A DNA stretch of 55,042 bases, from IMG/VR virus record IMGVR_UViG_3300045988_114880; one strand, 5' to 3'. This DNA is from a virus. How positions within the stretch are numbered: position 1 is the stretch's first letter; every line of letters begins with the position of its first letter. Below are positions 615 through 27,077 of the stretch, one piece after another. Both the position numbers and the translations under genes were made by a program. A model generated the notes under the pieces. The model did no database searches and was not told where the DNA came from. It saw only the letters and a program-made list of their open reading frames with translations.

Positions 615-1838
615 ATGCTAGAGAAGATACGATACAGGTTGGTCTTTAACCGCCAAAAGAAACTGAATAAGCAAGGCACGGCCCTTGTACAGATTGAAGC
701 TTATTTGAACCAAAGGAAAATCTACCTGAAGACCAATGTTTACCTCAAACCGGAATGCTGGAGCCGTGAGGGGGCACAAGTCATTAACCACCCCCAATCT
801 AACGAACTCAACACAATGCTCTATGAATACATCCTGTATCTGCAAGGCATAGAATTGGGGTATTGGAAGCGCGGAATACCTGCCACACTCTCACTACTGA
901 AGGATGCTGTCAAGAAGAAAAGTGCCGTGAATATCAGCTTCTCCACTTTCGCCAAATCAGCCATTGACAATTCGGACAAGAAGCAGTCCACCAAGGACAA
1001 CCTGCACTCGACACTGGCGGTCCTGCATGATTTCCGTTCCGGATTGGACTTCAAGGATCTTACCTATACATTCCTTCGTGATTTTGAGCAATACTTGAGA
1101 GAAAAGGGCAATGCGGTCAATACGATAGCCAAGCACATGAGACAGCTCCGTACCTTGGTCAATGAGGCAATCAACCAGGGATATATGCACGCCGACGCTT
1201 ATCCGTTCAGAAAGTACAAAATCAAACAGGAGAAAGGCAGACATGAGTTTCTTACCCCGGACGAGCTGAAGAAGCTGGAAACGGTCGAAGTGGAAGAGAA
1301 GTCCATGCGCCATGTGCTCGATGCCTTCCTGTTCTGCTGTTATACCGGATTGCGCTATTCTGACTTCTGCCAGCTCACACCTGAGAATTTCATTAGGATA
1401 AACGGCAAGCGGTGGCTGTACTTCAAATCCGTCAAGACAGGGGTGGAAATCCGTCTGCCGTTACATCTGCTGTTTGAAAGCAGGGCATTGGGCATTCTTG
1501 ACCGCTATCCGGATATCGGAAGTTTTGCCGCTTTGCCTTGTAACTCGGAAGTGAATAAGCAGCTTCGAAAGCTGGCCGGGTTATGTGGTATCAAAAAGCG
1601 GATAACCTACCATGTGAGCCGTCATACCTGTGCCACCCTGCTGATTCATCAGGGAGTGGCTATTACCACTGTGCAGAAACTGCTCGGACATACTTCCGTA
1701 AAGACCACACAGATTTATTCGGAGGTACTTTCCAGCACCATTGTGCGTGACTTGAAAAATGTTCAAAGGAAAAGGAAAAAAGTAAAGATGTTTCCCGATA
1801 AAGGCTTGAGAACATCTGATTTTATAGACAACCGGTAG
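615..1838 (+). CDS. Tyrosine site-specific recombinase, candidate shufflon invertase
   Basis: C-terminal HVSRHTCATLL...LLGHTSVKTTQIYSEV (R-H-R-Y catalytic signature); Bacteroides-type N-terminal arm-binding region; begins about 70 bp from core copy 2. Confidence 0.85.
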   Translation: MLEKIRYRLVFNRQKKLNKQGTALVQIEAYLNQRKIYLKTNVYLKPECWSREGAQVINHPQSNELNTMLYEYILYLQGIELGYWKRGIPATLSLLKDAVKKKSAVNISFSTFAKSAIDNSDKKQSTKDNLHSTLAVLHDFRSGLDFKDLTYTFLRDFEQYLREKGNAVNTIAKHMRQLRTLVNEAINQGYMHADAYPFRKYKIKQEKGRHEFLTPDELKKLETVEVEEKSMRHVLDAFLFCCYTGLRYSDFCQLTPENFIRINGKRWLYFKSVKTGVEIRLPLHLLFESRALGILDRYPDIGSFAALPCNSEVNKQLRKLAGLCGIKKRITYHVSRHTCATLLIHQGVAITTVQKLLGHTSVKTTQIYSEVLSSTIVRDLKNVQRKRKKVKMFPDKGLRTSDFIDNR

Positions 1839-2077
1839 ATTTCATGAATCCTATTTGTTTTCTATTAATATTGTGACTCTTTAATTTCTTCGGATAATCG
1901 AAATATTGCTCCTGATTATTTTTTTCAATATGAATTGAATATGGAATAGTTTTCACTATCTTTGCAGTGTAACCAGGAGCTTGATGGCAATAAATATTGT
2001 CATCAGGCTCTTTTTTATTGTCATATCGTGGCAATGGATTTAAGTAATTCTGCAACAATGACGTAAGTAAATAGACA

Positions 2078-2085
2078 TATCTTTG
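2078..2085 (+). promoter_or_regulatory. Bacteroides-type -7 promoter box TATCTTTG upstream of the lysis cassette
   Basis: Match to TAnnTTTG about 35 nt before ATG 2120; a second copy lies at 1957..1964. Confidence 0.4.
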
Positions 2086-2119
2086 AAGTAGTATTATAAT
2101 CAGATAAACAATAGACAGA

Positions 2120-2506
2120 ATGGAATTAAACGACTGGTTGGCTATAATCGGGGCTTTCGGAGGATTGGAGGCTGTCCGTTGGGGTGTCACGTTCTGGGTG
2201 AACCGCAAGACGAACGCACGGAAAGAGGATGCGTCCGCCGATTCAATGGAGGATGAGAACGAGCGCAAGCAGGTTGACTGGCTGGAAGAACGTATCGCCC
2301 AGCGTGACGCCAAGATTGATGCGTTATACGTTGAGCTTCGTAATGAACAGTCTGATAAGCTGGCATGGATTCATAAGTGCCACGAGCTGGAACTGCAATT
2401 GAAAGATGCCGAACATAACCGTTGTGACAGGCCCGACAGCGAATGCGGCCGTCGTATTCCACCACGCAGGGCTACATTAATTAAAGATAAGGAGGAAAAG
2501 AAATGA
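2120..2506 (+). CDS. Lysis-associated membrane protein (holin or spanin-like; N-terminal TM segment plus coiled coil)
   Basis: Hydrophobic WLAIIGAFGGLEAVRWGVTFWV followed by a charged helical region; ATGA overlap with the endolysin gene. Confidence 0.45.
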   Translation: MELNDWLAIIGAFGGLEAVRWGVTFWVNRKTNARKEDASADSMEDENERKQVDWLEERIAQRDAKIDALYVELRNEQSDKLAWIHKCHELELQLKDAEHNRCDRPDSECGRRIPPRRATLIKDKEEKK

Positions 2507-2901
2507 AGTTTTTTACGATTGCGGAACTCTGCAAGTCAACAACTGCTGACCGCTTGGGTATCAATAACAGATGCAGACAGGAGCATGTGACTGCTCTGAC
2601 TGCCTTGGTGGATAATGTGCTTGATCCGTTACGCACATGGTGGGGAAAGCCAATAACAGTAAACAGTGGCTATCGCTGTCTGGAACTTAATGCAGCTGTC
2701 AAGGGAAGCAAGACCTCGCAGCACATGAAGGGGGAAGCTGCTGATATTGACACTGGGGACAGACAGCAAAACAAGCTGTTATTTGAATATATCCGCAAGA
2801 ACCTGCCCTATGACCAGTTGATTGACGAGTCTAACTTCGCTTGGGTGCACGTCAGTTATCGGGCTGACGGAAATAACAGGATGCAAGTTTTGAAACTCTA
2901 A
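2503..2901 (+). CDS. Endolysin, peptidase M15 (D-Ala-D-Ala carboxypeptidase-like) family
   Basis: SGYRC...SQHMKGEAADI...WVHVS zinc-ligand pattern typical of Peptidase_M15_3 endolysins. Confidence 0.8.
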   Translation: MKFFTIAELCKSTTADRLGINNRCRQEHVTALTALVDNVLDPLRTWWGKPITVNSGYRCLELNAAVKGSKTSQHMKGEAADIDTGDRQQNKLLFEYIRKNLPYDQLIDESNFAWVHVSYRADGNNRMQVLKL

Positions 2902-3007
2902 AAACTGCAACTATGGAAAAAGAACCAGGATTTTTTGTGAAAGATACTGATAACTTGCGTGCCAGACTCATTATCACGAGTGAAACGGTTAAAAACTCTC
3001 GCCTTGA

Positions 3008-24400: not shown

Positions 24401-24517
24401 TTAAAATTATTAAGACTAAAGTTAGGCGGTAAATTCAATTCTACCGCCTTTTTTGTGCCTGGGCGGATAGTTCAGGCATTTTTTATTTTAATCATAACTA
24501 ATAAAAAAAGGAATATT

Positions 24518-24796
24518 ATGGAAATGCCAGTACCATGCAGTAAATGCGGAGAATGGGTAGAATTAAATTCTACTCGTGAATCAGAATTGAATAAAGGCAA
24601 GATGCTATGTCCTGAATGTTACTCAACCGATGATTCAGTTAAAGATAAAATCGAAGAGATAAAGGATATTCAGCTCATGCTTGACAATAATGACCCGGAA
24701 GTTAAAGGAGATCGTCGGGGATGGAAACGTAATATCAATAAATTGAAACAGGAGATTATCGAATTAGGATATGATCCAGAAGAATATTTGTATTAA
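24518..24796 (+). CDS. Zinc-ribbon protein (92 aa)
   Basis: CSKCGEW...CPEC; ATG 24518 follows the terminator at 24421-24455. Confidence 0.55.
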   Translation: MEMPVPCSKCGEWVELNSTRESELNKGKMLCPECYSTDDSVKDKIEEIKDIQLMLDNNDPEVKGDRRGWKRNINKLKQEIIELGYDPEEYLY

Positions 24797-24812
24797 CGTA
24801 TAAGGAACAGAT

Positions 24813-25094
24813 ATGAACATAAAAATAAGCAAGGAGGCGTATGAGAAACTAATCAAAGAAGATTTATACTTTCTCAATGAGCATTGCCCAGATAGCCTAG
24901 AATTAGATCACATTAAAGTAATTATTTTTAGTTCTATCGACTGGTATTATCCTGATAAGAACACTTGTACAGCGTTGAAAAGAATAGAGAATAGGCTTAA
25001 AGTTGAACTTCAGAAGCAAAAGGACGCAGGTAAGCAATTTCTATCAGATCAGGAAATAGACGGCTTGATTGATAGCATACTGAAAGAAGAATAA
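24813..25094 (+). CDS. Hypothetical protein (93 aa)
   Basis: ORF. Confidence 0.55.
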   Translation: MNIKISKEAYEKLIKEDLYFLNEHCPDSLELDHIKVIIFSSIDWYYPDKNTCTALKRIENRLKVELQKQKDAGKQFLSDQEIDGLIDSILKEE

Positions 25095-25113: not shown

Positions 25114-25869
25114 ATGAAGCAAAGCAAATTGACTCACGGCTCTCTGTTTAGTGGGATAGAAGGTTTCGGCTTGGGTGCAGCATTTGCTGGAATAAAAACA
25201 CTCTGGAGCTGCGAATATGAAGAGTATCAAGCAAGTATAATCAAAAAAAAATTTGGAGAAGACCATGGAATCAACAGAGATATTAGAACGTATTCAAATC
25301 CAACGTTTGTTGACATCATTAGCGGTGGATTCCCTTGCCAGGACATCAGCGTTGCTGGAAAAGGTGTCGGAATTGTCGGTGAAAGAAGTGGCTTATGGGC
25401 TGAGATGTATCGAGTTATACGGGAAGTTAGACCTAGATACATCATCATTGAAAACAGCCCAATGCTCCTTATTCGGGGATTTGAACGAGTCCTATGCAAC
25501 CTTTCCGAAATCGGGTATGATGCAGAATGGCAATGTTTATCAGGCACCGACTTTGGCATACAACAGGGTCGGGAACGGTTATATTGTATTGCCTACTCCC
25601 GTGAAAACAACAGCTCACGGTGCAGCCAGGGATCGGTATTTCGGAAGCCCTACCTATCGGGGCAACATACAAGAATATATCCGGGATGGAGAACAAGACA
25701 GTCAATACCCGCACCCCGCTTTGCTGGAAAACATAATGAGCTTCCCGATCGGGTGGACAGAACGGAGTGTATAGGTAATGCAGTACAACCTATCATTGCG
25801 CACTATTTATTTGAATGTATTAAAGAATTTGATAGGCAATTAGAGCAAACCGTGGGTGAAAATGAGTAA
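25114..25869 (+). CDS. Small DNA (cytosine-5) methyltransferase (251 aa)
   Basis: LFSGIEGFGLG (I), GGFPCQDISVAGK (IV), IIIENSP (VI), QQGRERLYCIAY (VIII), LPDRVDRTECIGNAVQP (IX-X). Confidence 0.8.
   Translation: MKQSKLTHGSLFSGIEGFGLGAAFAGIKTLWSCEYEEYQASIIKKKFGEDHGINRDIRTYSNPTFVDIISGGFPCQDISVAGKGVGIVGERSGLWAEMYRVIREVRPRYIIIENSPMLLIRGFERVLCNLSEIGYDAEWQCLSGTDFGIQQGRERLYCIAYSRENNSSRCSQGSVFRKPYLSGQHTRIYPGWRTRQSIPAPRFAGKHNELPDRVDRTECIGNAVQPIIAHYLFECIKEFDRQLEQTVGENE
25241..25774 (+). other. 178-codon open +1 frame embedded in the methyltransferase gene, beginning at the A9 tract
   Basis: No stop from 25241 to 25774; translation contains KSGMMQNG, LPTPVKTTAHG and SFPIGWTE, strings resembling C5-methyltransferase TRD and motif IX regions. 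Confidence 0.4.
25243..25251 (+). repeat. Homopolymeric A9 tract (codons KKK of the methyltransferase)
   Basis: tcAAAAAAAAAttt; losing one A moves translation into the embedded frame. Confidence 0.9.
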
Positions 25870-25921: not shown

Positions 25922-26182
25922 ATGGAAAGAAAAGATATGGATAAAGATAAATTTATAAGAGCAATAGAAATAAACAATAAAATAGAGGAATACAAAGATC
26001 ATAAGATGACACTTGAAAATTCTAACATAAAATATGGTGGTGGATTGATATTTACATACAACAGGATGCACAATGATGTACCATTAAAGGAAGAAATTTT
26101 TGGTAAAAATTTCTTTCAGTTATATATGTATGCTTTGGATAGTAAGATAAAAGAATTACAAAAAGAGTTTGACGAATTATGA
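25922..26182 (+). CDS. Hypothetical protein (86 aa)
   Basis: ORF. Confidence 0.55.
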   Translation: MERKDMDKDKFIRAIEINNKIEEYKDHKMTLENSNIKYGGGLIFTYNRMHNDVPLKEEIFGKNFFQLYMYALDSKIKELQKEFDEL

Positions 26183-26535
26183 TAAAGGAAGAAACCAAAC
26201 AGACAGCAGAAGAAGCGGCAAGGGGATATTCCAATGATTGCAGAAACAGGCAGCGTCATTGTGAACCGTACTGCATTGTTGACTTTATTTCTGGCGCACA
26301 ATGGCAGTCAAAGCAATCGCCTTGGATAAGTGTTAAGGAACGGTTGCCGGAAGAAGGACAAAAAGTTTTCGTTTTGACAATGTGTTGTGGTGTTTCACGC
26401 ATTCTAATTGAAAGGTTTTATAAAACAAATGCTTTTGATAAAGATAATAGATGGATTTTTGGAAATAGTATCGTGTTGGCATGGTTTCCTATTCCGTCTT
26501 TTGATGAGATATTAAAGAACAACAATAAAAAATGA
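26179..26535 (+). CDS. DUF551-like protein
   Basis: WISVKERLPEEGQKVFVLT pattern. Confidence 0.5.
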   Translation: MIKEETKQTAEEAARGYSNDCRNRQRHCEPYCIVDFISGAQWQSKQSPWISVKERLPEEGQKVFVLTMCCGVSRILIERFYKTNAFDKDNRWIFGNSIVLAWFPIPSFDEILKNNNKK

Positions 26536-27077
26536 AAGCAATAACCATAAAACAGCCGTGGGCCTCTTTGATAGTCCATGGTATTAAAGACATTGAGAAC
26601 CGTACTTGGAGCTGCCCTAAGAAATACTTAGGGCAGAGGGTACTGATTCATTCAAGCGGTAAACCTTTGAATTATGATAATTTCTATGATTCAATACTTA
26701 CCAATGAGCAGTTATTGGCATTACCGGAAAACAAAGAGTGGAAAGATTTTAGTTTTTGTACAGGCTCCATAATCGGAAGCGTCGAGATAATAGACTGTGT
26801 ACAAAACCATCCTTCCATCTGGGCAGAGAAAGGAGTTTATAACTGGGTACTAGCTAACCCTATTCTCTACGAAAATCCAATTGAGGACGTGAAAGGCAAA
26901 TTATCCTTTTGGGATTATCCCAGTATCAAAGAGGTAAAGATAGAATGTCCGGAATGTGGCAGTATAGAAATAGCTGTTGAGGACTATACAACGGCACCAT
27001 TCCCAACTTATTTGCATAGGTGTAATAAGTGTGAACATGTGATTATAGAAAGTGAGTGGAAGGAGGTAAAACTATGA
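26532..27077 (+). CDS. ASCH-domain protein with a C-terminal zinc ribbon
   Basis: MKAITIKQPWASLIVHGIKDIENRTW; CPECG...CNKCEH. Confidence 0.7.
   Translation: MKAITIKQPWASLIVHGIKDIENRTWSCPKKYLGQRVLIHSSGKPLNYDNFYDSILTNEQLLALPENKEWKDFSFCTGSIIGSVEIIDCVQNHPSIWAEKGVYNWVLANPILYENPIEDVKGKLSFWDYPSIKEVKIECPECGSIEIAVEDYTTAPFPTYLHRCNKCEHVIIESEWKEVKL

Follow-up and report, generated by a model that had tools for sequence, protein, structure and literature searches.

The window, a 55,042-nucleotide viral sequence (IMG/VR record IMGVR_UViG_3300045988_114880), carries on its plus strand a small C5-cytosine methyltransferase gene at 25114–25869, hereafter alpha, whose 251-aa product is a catalytic subunit with motifs I–VIII and X. 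Indeed, alpha matched Pfam PF00145 (E=5e-39 over residues 9–170, i.e., profile positions 4–169 of 324, corresponding to motifs I–VIII), PHROG family phrog_363 (E=3e-56, residues 3–247) and NCBIfam TIGR00675 (E=5e-32, 111.8 bits for a cutoff of 100.65). The translation and an alignment of 12 alpha proteins located all the catalytic motifs I (FxGxG), IV (PCQ), VI (ENV/ENS) and VIII (QxRxR): the AdoMet-binding motif I is FSGIEGFG (25147–25170, upstream of the overlap with the second gene, beta), motif IV is GGFPCQ with the catalytic Cys (25324–25341, DNA that in the beta frame encodes a poorly ordered N-terminal region), motif VI is ENSP (25450–25461) and motif VIII is QQGRER (25561–25578), all on the plus strand, as is motif X, GNAV (25774–25785), whose first base doubles as the final base of the beta stop. 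From motif VIII to motif X runs a linker of ~58 residues, where conservation in alpha is lowest (22% mean identity); its chief requirement appears to be staying open, the sequence itself being weakly conserved. Since no convincing target-recognition domain (TRD) or motif IX was found in frame 1, where the Pfam alignment ends at profile position 169/324, the frame-1 protein is, judged from its sequence, not the ‘complete’ C5-methyltransferase of the original prediction.

The beta gene (25265–25774, plus strand, 169 aa) lies wholly within alpha, on the same strand and in the +1 frame, starting at ATG 25265 (alternative TTG 25253) and ending with TAG 25772–25774. The +1 frame is free of stops over 25241–25771, i.e., 177 sense codons, or 178 codons with the TAG. 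The preceding +1 stop is TAA 25238–25240, and the frame therefore opens at a run of nine A (25243–25251, plus strand, the alpha KKK codons) located 14–22 nt upstream of the beta ATG, where relatives carry A8T4, AAAAAGAA or AAAGAAAAAC of equal length. The original prediction had described the methyltransferase ORF, a +1 frame open over 25241–25774 and the A9 run, and all three were confirmed in the sequence, as was its remark that ELPDRVDR in frame 1 and SFPIGWTE in the +1 frame are read from the same bases (about 25740–25765). The position of the beta ATG is conserved, the codon being formed from alpha (Y/H)(G/D/E) codons directly 5′ of the alpha ‘DIR’ motif, and 6 nt upstream of it a GGAG (25255–25258, plus strand), kept in the five closest sequences, may act as a Shine-Dalgarno-like element. 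Further downstream on the plus strand, beta displays a conserved block, FPKSGMMQNGNVY (25502–25540), whose DNA also encodes alpha motifs VII–VIII, with P81, G84 and G89 nearly invariant, an LPTP block (25589–25600), with T111 and P112 nearly invariant, at the start of region B, and a motif-IX-like block, PALLENIMSFPIGWTE (25715–25762), which overlaps alpha ...HNELPDRVDRT and in which P151, E155, M158, P161 and T165 are nearly invariant. Region B (25597–25771, plus strand) comprises the alpha ‘linker’ and the conserved C-terminal domain of beta (beta pLDDT 85–95). Beta-specific peptide stretches include SGMMQNGNVYQAPTLAYNR and YFGSPTYR. Note that the exact alpha protein of the window was found on at least 1000 contigs and the exact beta protein was called on 656; such recurrence of both exact sequences, over hundreds of independent contigs, rules out a pair of compensating sequencing errors.

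When codons were shuffled synonymously with the frame-1 protein kept, none of 2000 shuffles reached the 177 codons of the +1 frame (null mean 74, maximum 150), and the openness of the +2 frame was ordinary in the same test (P=0.32). Against synonymous shuffles, the long +1 frame was significant in 7/7 homologues (P<0.0005 to 0.02) and the +2 frame was not. With five further lineages added to these seven, the +1 frame was found open in all 12 divergent homologues, which span a GC content of 43 to 61% and include Bacteroides, Porphyromonas, Paenibacillus, Stenotrophomonas, Mycobacterium, Salmonella, Vibrio and Sulfitobacter phages. In addition, the similarity of beta proteins went beyond the constraint imposed by alpha, with pairwise z values of 17.8 (window and Paenibacillus phage Lily), 16.5 (window and homologue S72) and 15.9 (Lily and S72), while the +2 frame gave a z of about 0 in the most divergent pairs. 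The upstream part of the overlap (region A) reached z=14 and region B z=33, and in region B beta is better conserved than alpha (scores of 2191 vs 1371). Among close relatives, alpha third-position divergence was 0.29–0.59 per site outside the overlap and 0.12–0.17 inside (2–5-fold lower), and within region B alpha position 1, which is beta position 3, was the most variable. The alpha frame in turn stays open through region B in 10/10 lineages (joint probability about 2e-8). Altogether, these results identify the +1 frame as a real coding sequence under selection and show purifying selection on both frames, an arrangement kept across phyla and a conserved beta start.

The beta family is unexpectedly large and mostly unannotated. 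An exhaustive profile search identified 17,064 beta-like cluster representatives at E≤1e-3 (clusters at 50% identity), spanning phages of Bacteroidota, Bacillota, Actinomycetota, Pseudomonadota and cyanobacteria with overlaps of 500–1080 nt, and no Pfam domain of their own was found in the roughly 150 of these representatives that were listed or scanned. PHROG 1008 is the beta family, as matched by the betas of Zerg (E=4e-54), of Lily (E=6e-44) and of the window (E=2e-14). In the Lily record, this ORF is annotated gp63, ‘g62 internal gene’; PGAP left beta unannotated in 4/4 E. coli prophages examined, and most of the phage records examined omit it. Our literature searches turned up no account of a nested ORF in phage methyltransferases, no stated function for it and no link to M.EcoHK31I.

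The original prediction had held that the +1 translation is not junk-like, and this stood: beta has its phrog_1008 match and is uninterrupted in all homologues examined, with 12/12 frames open. It had also noted a resemblance to the TRD and GFPxGWT region of longer phage enzymes, and the PTP and MGFPxGWT blocks are indeed present, without support from profiles or folds. Searching both frames with profiles, as it had suggested, gave PF00145 in frame 1 and phrog_1008 in the +1 frame, whereas Pfam and NCBIfam returned no matches for beta. Nor did Pfam match anything past motif VIII in a hand-made ‘repaired’ chimera (alpha I–VIII, beta region B, alpha X), or match the long beta′ proteins bearing motifs IX and X; in neither frame does the Pfam profile extend past motif VIII. 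The beta profile gave a single chance match among PDB sequences (E=0.78), and hhalign against E. coli Dcm gave a probability of 0.4%. An AlphaFold model of beta from a 44-sequence alignment was unusable (pLDDT 38), and one from 150 diverse sequences reached pLDDT 70, with 85–95 for residues 110–169 and below 50 for residues 1–46; Foldseek searches with the latter found no match in PDB and, in BFVD (predicted viral structures), other beta-like proteins only, with TM-scores below 0.31. The motif-like stretches of beta are LPTP and an L-N-P...E..MGFP.GWT block that resembles motif IX and whose place on the DNA, between VIII and X, is that of motif IX in canonical enzymes. As an example, E. coli Dcm LTPRECARLMGF and the beta consensus LNPxWVEWLMGWP have the pattern L-[TN]-P-x7-G-[FWY]-P in common. 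The resemblance of beta to a motif IX/TRD segment is one of pattern and position.

We consider it likely that this dual-coding locus specifies a C5-cytosine methyltransferase made of two polypeptides, of the same type as M.EcoHK31I. Alpha would supply the catalytic large domain (motifs I, IV, VI, VIII and X), and we infer that beta would be translated independently from ATG 25265, preceded by GGAG and an A-rich stretch, would assemble with alpha into the active enzyme and would act as its specificity/motif-IX subunit. In this context, the C-terminal half of beta (LPTP ... G..RDRYFGS ... P....E..MSFPIGWTE) may represent the displaced target-recognition and motif-IX part, a segment that would keep its canonical place on the DNA, after VIII and before X, with its frame shifted by one base. 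The N-terminal half, overprinted on alpha motifs IV–VIII and predicted to be disordered alone, probably tethers beta to alpha. The assembled enzyme would serve a gut Bacteroides/Phocaeicola phage or prophage as an orphan methyltransferase, methylating the phage DNA against restriction. On balance, beta is most likely the DNA-recognition subunit that alpha is missing. A fossil of frame-shift evolution, one of the explanations offered originally, agrees with a TRD/IX-like segment lying at the canonical position one base out of frame, but purifying selection marks the +1 frame as a living gene.

If a +1 ribosomal frameshift were programmed to follow motif VIII, the product would be a single canonical chain from motifs I–VIII into TRD and IX, with a shift back needed to reach X and with the upstream part of the +1 ORF not translated by itself. 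Region B is the best conserved part of the +1 frame and lies where canonical enzymes encode the TRD and motif IX, and some long relatives have IX and X together in the beta frame, all of which would fit such a chain. Nevertheless, we regard it as improbable: M.EcoHK31I, according to PMC2836561, needs two separate polypeptides, which suffice. Moreover, the +1 frame is open for 100–170 codons upstream of motif VIII in AT-rich genomes, this upstream part is conserved beyond the null (region A), the ORF begins at a conserved ATG, and the alpha frame stays open through region B to motif X. In reading the sequences, we noticed no slippery site where motif VIII meets the TRD.

Beta could also be a real protein unrelated to methylation, such as an anti-defence or regulatory protein overprinted on a methyltransferase gene. 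Overprinted viral proteins often have accessory roles, and no profile or fold ties beta to a characterised domain. However, beta is strictly coupled to one methyltransferase family in 12/12 lineages, alpha is without TRD and motif IX, and the L-N-P...E..MGFP.GW block of beta resembles motif IX at the canonical DNA position, continuing in long variants into motif X in the same frame. Together with the precedent of M.EcoHK31I, these observations make an unrelated function unlikely.

The original prediction had put forward homopolymer phase variation or transcriptional or ribosomal slippage at the A9 run, as a switch from the methyltransferase to a protein in which alpha residues 1–45 are fused to the +1 frame, and back, which we now regard as highly improbable. 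Runs of nine A can slip, and the prediction was correct, as a statement about sequence, that losing one A would join these residues to the +1 frame (I-K-K-N-L-E-K-T-M-E-S...). Two fusion proteins from relatives, P0009 and P0115, do have their junction at the A/T tract. However, both are singleton clusters among about 17 frame-fusion proteins in the database, the others having junctions over at least six other positions that are as frequently used, and the unfused A9 allele occurs on at least 1000 contigs. The tract is unconserved, four close relatives carrying A8T4, AAAAAGAATTTT or AAAGAAAAACTTT that differ by substitution at identical length, and other clades have no tract, or a beta that starts 4 nt after alpha. 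Indeed, in the Salmonella/Vibrio clade the +1 ORF begins 4 nt after the alpha start, and therefore no N-terminal piece exists to be fused. Beta has its own conserved internal ATG, and the fusion product (peptide across IIKKNLEKTMESTE; junction IIKKNLEK) would be without motifs IV–VIII. We read the A9 run as incidental, an allele that replaces N by K in alpha and may at most form part of the A-rich translation-initiation region of beta. Finally, a non-functional shadow ORF is refuted, for although the amino-acid and codon composition of alpha already makes the longest +1 run of the null long (mean about 74 codons), no shuffle in 2000 attains the observed length, the frame recurs in 12/12 lineages from 43 to 61% GC, protein similarity reaches z=33, and it is only within the overlap that synonymous sites of alpha are suppressed.

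For the window, the two-polypeptide reading means that a phase-variation or recoding hypothesis is no longer needed. We lean, by a modest degree, towards extending it to the whole phrog_363-type family of small (about 240–360 aa) C5-methyltransferases in phages and prophages, which would be obligate two-polypeptide enzymes with their specificity/motif-IX subunit in the +1 frame and, if so, would rank in size and age with the foremost long nested gene pairs that prokaryotic viruses carry on one strand. Thousands of phage ‘small C5-methyltransferases’ may then be mis-annotated as single-subunit enzymes; anyone cloning the annotated alpha protein as a recoded gene would leave out beta, and with it probably the activity, and specificity prediction (REBASE-style) for such enzymes should consider the nested frame. 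The locus is also an unusually clean natural case of long dual coding, with selection measurable on both frames, and could be used to benchmark methods that detect overlapping genes. It further suggests a route by which overprinting of an upstream N-terminal extension can rescue a frameshifted gene segment.

Canonical single-chain enzymes (PF00145, e.g., M.HhaI and E. coli Dcm) have the same DNA order as the window, i.e., I, IV, VI, VIII, variable region, IX and X, whereas in the window the putative variable region and motif IX lie one base out of frame, in a separate polypeptide with an added N-terminal extension. Direct homologues are gp62 and gp63 of Lily, gp63 being in the +1 frame of the C5-methyltransferase gp62, and members of PHROG families 363 and 1008, which are matched by the window alpha and beta, respectively; both pairs are known as annotations only. 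In the papers describing Lily, gp63 is given as a second ‘DNA-cytosine methyltransferase’ without comment. M.AquI is naturally split into an N-terminal subunit with the catalytic motifs and a C-terminal subunit with motif IX, which must associate; the two are encoded essentially one after the other, and its beta has both IX and X. Its consecutive genes differ from the nested pair of the window, and its beta is nearer to the long beta′ variants (L016, P0258 and P0290), which have IX and X together in the beta frame, than to the window beta. M.AquI, a two-subunit C5-methyltransferase, is mentioned in PMC3404938.

M.EcoHK31I comes from E. coli HK31 (Lee, Kam & Shaw 1995; Fung et al. 2006; via PMC2836561). 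According to PMC2836561 (citing PMID 7870574 and 16740121), its beta is nested out of frame in alpha, alpha holds motifs I–VIII plus X while beta holds motif IX, both polypeptides are required, and two separate polypeptides are necessary and sufficient; association, and not catalysis, requires the N-terminus of beta, and the TRD is reported in alpha. As described there, it resembles the window in architecture, i.e., a C5-cytosine methyltransferase with a beta ORF inside the alpha gene in another frame, and the association role of its beta N-terminus fits the overprinted N-terminal half of the window beta, predicted to be disordered. In contrast, M.EcoHK31I belongs to a restriction-modification system (YGGCCR), whereas the gene in the window stands as an orphan within the replication/early region of a phage. 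Moreover, the TRD placed in its alpha would find no room in the window alpha, and because the latter has just the ~58-residue, weakly conserved VIII–X linker, recognition probably lies in beta.

Direct reading of the sequence and the ORF listing both place the C5-cytosine methyltransferase gene (alpha, frame 1) at 25114-25869 (+), as originally predicted. In its +1 frame, a TAA at 25238-25240 is followed by a stop-free run from 25241 to a TAG at 25772-25774 (177 sense codons); the tract of nine A residues (A9, 25243-25251) indeed lies at the 5′ boundary of this frame, and frame-1 ELPDRVDR and +1-frame SFPIGWTE come from the same bases. When synonymous codons were permuted within the gene, holding the frame-1 protein and codon usage, such a run was reached in 0 of 2000 shuffles (null mean 74, maximum 150), and the +2 frame displayed ordinary openness (P=0.32). 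By the same test, the +1 openness was significant (P from <0.0005 to 0.02) in six other homologues, those of Paenibacillus phage Lily, Stenotrophomonas phage S72, Mycobacterium phage Zerg, Salmonella phage S9-5 and Bacteroides phages BF1-TP2 and BU730P1. Five more small homologues (Vibrio phage ZQ26, virus Rctr197k, a Manatee Spring myovirus, Sulfitobacter phage phiGT1 and Porphyromonas phage 030a) also carry the +1 ORF, which is significantly long in four (P<0.001-0.016) and without significance in GC-rich Rctr197k (P=0.10). The original prediction had named stops in homologues as evidence that would speak against the second frame; the nested ORF was instead open in 12 of 12 lineages examined (GC 43 to 61%), always in the +1 frame of the methyltransferase. 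Note that the dual-coding region also holds a 110-codon antisense ORF (25227-25559, − strand), which is likely a by-product of the fewer stop codons under two sense frames.

The +1 translation is conserved as a protein. Using tblastn, it was recovered in 75 phage records, down to ~30% identity over ~95% of its length (E=1e-11 for Lily, 3e-11 for Stenotrophomonas phages). Against a null in which both partners of each pair were synonymously shuffled, +1-frame alignment scores reached z=17.8 (window-Lily), 16.5 (window-S72) and 15.9 (Lily-S72), and +2-frame values were ~0 in these most divergent pairs and up to ~5 in some others. The regional test covered 45 pairs from 10 divergent homologues: in region A, which extends from PCQ through motif VIII, the +1 frame gave z=14 and the +2 frame z=4.2, and in region B, which extends from there to GNAV, the +1 frame gave z=33, with a score above that of the methyltransferase frame itself (2191 vs 1371). 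Conversely, with the +1 protein fixed and its synonymous codons shuffled, the methyltransferase frame in region B retained a weak extra similarity (z=4.5), and it carried no stop in 10 of 10 lineages, compared with 0.7-1.8 expected (joint probability ~2e-8). In close relatives sharing 81-87% protein identity, third positions of frame 1 diverged by 0.29-0.59 per site outside the overlap and by 0.12-0.17 inside, and the most variable site of region B was frame-1 position 1, that is, +1-frame position 3. Both frames are therefore under purifying selection, as indicated by the shuffle z-scores, the stop-free frame 1 and the codon-position divergence; in region B, constraint comes mainly from the +1 frame, and the requirement on frame 1 is mostly to remain open. 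The description of the +1 translation as not junk-like holds, with a match to phrog_1008 and conservation far above the shuffle null. The second frame is thus real and functional, and its product would be translated and be needed for methylation.

The first ATG of the open frame (25265, MESTEILER...) defines a nested protein of 169 aa (beta), preceded by GGAG at 25255-25258 and by an A/T-rich stretch 14-22 nt upstream. GGAG and ATG are kept in the five closest sequences, and the ATG holds the same place relative to frame 1 in nine lineages, being built from the last two bases of a Tyr/His codon and the G of the next, ahead of the conserved methyltransferase 'DIR'; the N-termini include MESTE, MESSQ, METSE, MRTSK, MTTSE and MDSLE. 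In the Salmonella P22-like, Vibrio and Manatee Spring clade, the two ORFs are almost co-extensive and their starts lie only 4 nt apart (ATGAATGAG; (A/G)TGAATGAG at L004 1059-1066, L011 404-411 and L013 416-423), and therefore one ribosome-binding site may serve both frames. The overlap reaches ~1080 nt in a metagenomic relative (L018) with ORFs of 362 and 359 codons. In S9-5, a dam-like adenine methylase gene lies upstream, its stop directly followed by the beta ATG, and the database contains a fusion of Dam with beta (P0143, 430 aa, PF05869).

The original prediction had proposed homopolymer phase variation or slippage at A9, which our results do not bear out, since the tract varies by base and not by length and fusion junctions are scattered. 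Relatives carry A8T4 (near-identical phages L009 and L010), AAAAAGAATTTT (MT837905) or AAAGAAAAACTTT (MT835900), all of equal length; the A9 allele is a T-to-A substitution that changes N to K in alpha. Other clades are without an A/T tract, and nothing supports programmed switching at this site. Databases do contain frame-fusion proteins, as a product of ~219 aa results from any single frameshift inside the overlap; their junctions fall at at least 7 positions, and only P0009 and P0115, from other relatives and on one contig each, are joined at the A/T tract. One fusion is clearly real: in a near-identical 55,076-bp phage, found in at least two samples, a CC insertion between 25499 and 25500 (CC to CCCC) joins the first 128 residues of alpha to the C-terminal half of beta (P0072, 220 aa; 1501-2163 in L009 and L010). 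Neither product would survive this insertion intact, and the allele is probably a null one. Bacteroidetes prefer A-rich, unstructured leaders over Shine-Dalgarno pairing, and the A-rich stretch at most helps initiation of beta translation.

Alpha (251 aa) matched PF00145 (E=5e-39; residues 9-170, profile positions 4-169 of 324), phrog_363 (E=3e-56, residues 3-247) and TIGR00675. It carries motifs I (25147-25170), IV (25324-25341), VI (25450-25461), VIII (25561-25578) and X (GNAV, 25774-25785), all on the + strand, but no recognisable target-recognition region (TRD) or motif IX between VIII and X, so that the frame-1 protein, previously described as complete, lacks both. Beta displays the conserved blocks FPKSGMMxNG, LPTP, G..(K/R)(D/N)R(Y/F)xGS and (N)P....E..M(G/S)FP.GWT(E/D), and its stop codon ends on the base that opens the Gly codon of GNAV. 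Its consensus LNPxWVEWLMGWP shares the Pro-to-Gly spacing of the motif-IX pattern of E. coli Dcm (LTPRECARLMGF). The predicted TRD and GFPxGWT likeness thus stands for the LPTP and MGFP.GWT-type blocks but not for profile or fold, as Pfam, NCBIfam, PDB sequence search, hhalign against Dcm and Foldseek gave no statistical support for a motif-IX/TRD identity. In the profile searches on both frames, PF00145 matched frame 1 and phrog_1008 the +1 frame, which had no Pfam match. AlphaFold returned no fold for beta with 44 sequences (pLDDT 38), and with 150 diverse sequences gave pLDDT 85-95 for residues 110-169, 62-85 for 50-110 and <50 for 1-46. The N-terminal half, which is less conserved and shares its DNA with alpha motifs IV-VIII, comes out as disordered in the prediction and would therefore fit a tether expected to fold on its partner.

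The only terminator-like hairpin nearby (24455-24479 (+), a 10-bp stem then a T-run) lies ~650 nt upstream of the methyltransferase, which may belong to a transcription unit starting after it. Because the hairpin sits at the annotated GTG start of ORF 24455-24796, this start is doubtful. Directly upstream of alpha are only small ORFs in the window (24455-25094) and a PAPS-reductase-like gene in L009 and L010; downstream in the window is a DUF551-like ORF, and the neighbours (26179-27077; L009 and L010) are typical phage early or DNA-metabolism genes. The methyltransferase has no restriction endonuclease next to it and is therefore an orphan.

Exact beta was found on 656 contigs and exact alpha on at least 1000, the contigs reaching 443-543 kb; given also the named cluster members (Phocaeicola vulgatus, Bacteroides ovatus and B. 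fragilis), the element is a common gut Bacteroidales phage or prophage. A profile search for beta gave at least 4117 clusters in a 90%-clustered database, and an exhaustive HMMER scan over 1.84 billion representatives found 17,064 proteins at E<=1e-3 (9,052 at E<=1e-10). Among the 120 matches listed and 8 long members scanned, no Pfam domain belonged to beta itself, PF00145 and PF05869 occurring on fusion proteins only. Its PHROGs family, phrog_1008, is labelled 'DNA methyltransferase' (E=4e-54 for Zerg beta, 6e-44 for Lily beta, 2e-14 for window beta). A few members were looked up by name, and they had no name or read 'hypothetical protein', except Lily gp63, annotated as 'g62 internal gene' and entered in the Lily phage paper as a second cytosine methyltransferase, with no comment. 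PGAP annotated the methyltransferase and omitted the nested ORF in four homologue-bearing E. coli prophages, and the papers found do not mention the nested ORF of phage methyltransferases.

The arrangement probably derives from a gene of canonical order (I-VIII / TRD-IX / X) whose TRD-IX segment slipped one base out of frame and was rescued as a separate polypeptide, its frame being lengthened upstream as far as a new start; across this segment the old frame would have stayed open, so that motif X remained joined to the catalytic domain. In about 10% of the top 145 representatives, the beta frame continues past motif IX and includes motif X (GNGQVP). In a long relative (L016), motif X is likewise read in the beta frame, the alpha frame having ended after motif VIII, an arrangement that resembles the split enzyme M.AquI. 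An insertion between motifs IX and X of L016 (2534-2908, in the long beta variant, beta′, ORF 1501-3006) resembles the 'ShiLan' hidden-HNH homing element of actinophage methylases (PMC11855218). Another beta′ protein (P0231, 442 aa) bears the motif-IX block in tandem (GQLNPDWVEWLMGWP[VI]GWTDLAPLP...STPRVT twice), and (W/F)PTP is repeated 3-6 times in other long members; both recall the tandem TRDs of multispecific phage methyltransferases.

Altogether, by architecture and not by demonstrated homology, the gene is most likely a nested two-polypeptide C5-methyltransferase of the M.EcoHK31I kind. This kind is already known, if rarely cited; the unexpected point is the scale, with a nested gene in every small homologue examined, over several bacterial phyla, and no Pfam family. 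According to the account of M.EcoHK31I by Meister et al. (PMC2836561; citing Lee, Kam & Shaw 1995, PMID 7870574, and Fung et al. 2006, PMID 16740121), association of its alpha and beta chains is required for activity, alpha holding motifs I-VIII plus X and beta motif IX, and N-terminal deletions of beta weaken binding to alpha. The published description places the TRD in alpha, for which window alpha, in contrast, has no room. As in M.EcoHK31I, window alpha holds motifs I-VIII and X, the end of beta coincides exactly with the start of motif X, and a beta block fitting the motif-IX pattern is a candidate for the motif carried by the M.EcoHK31I beta chain.
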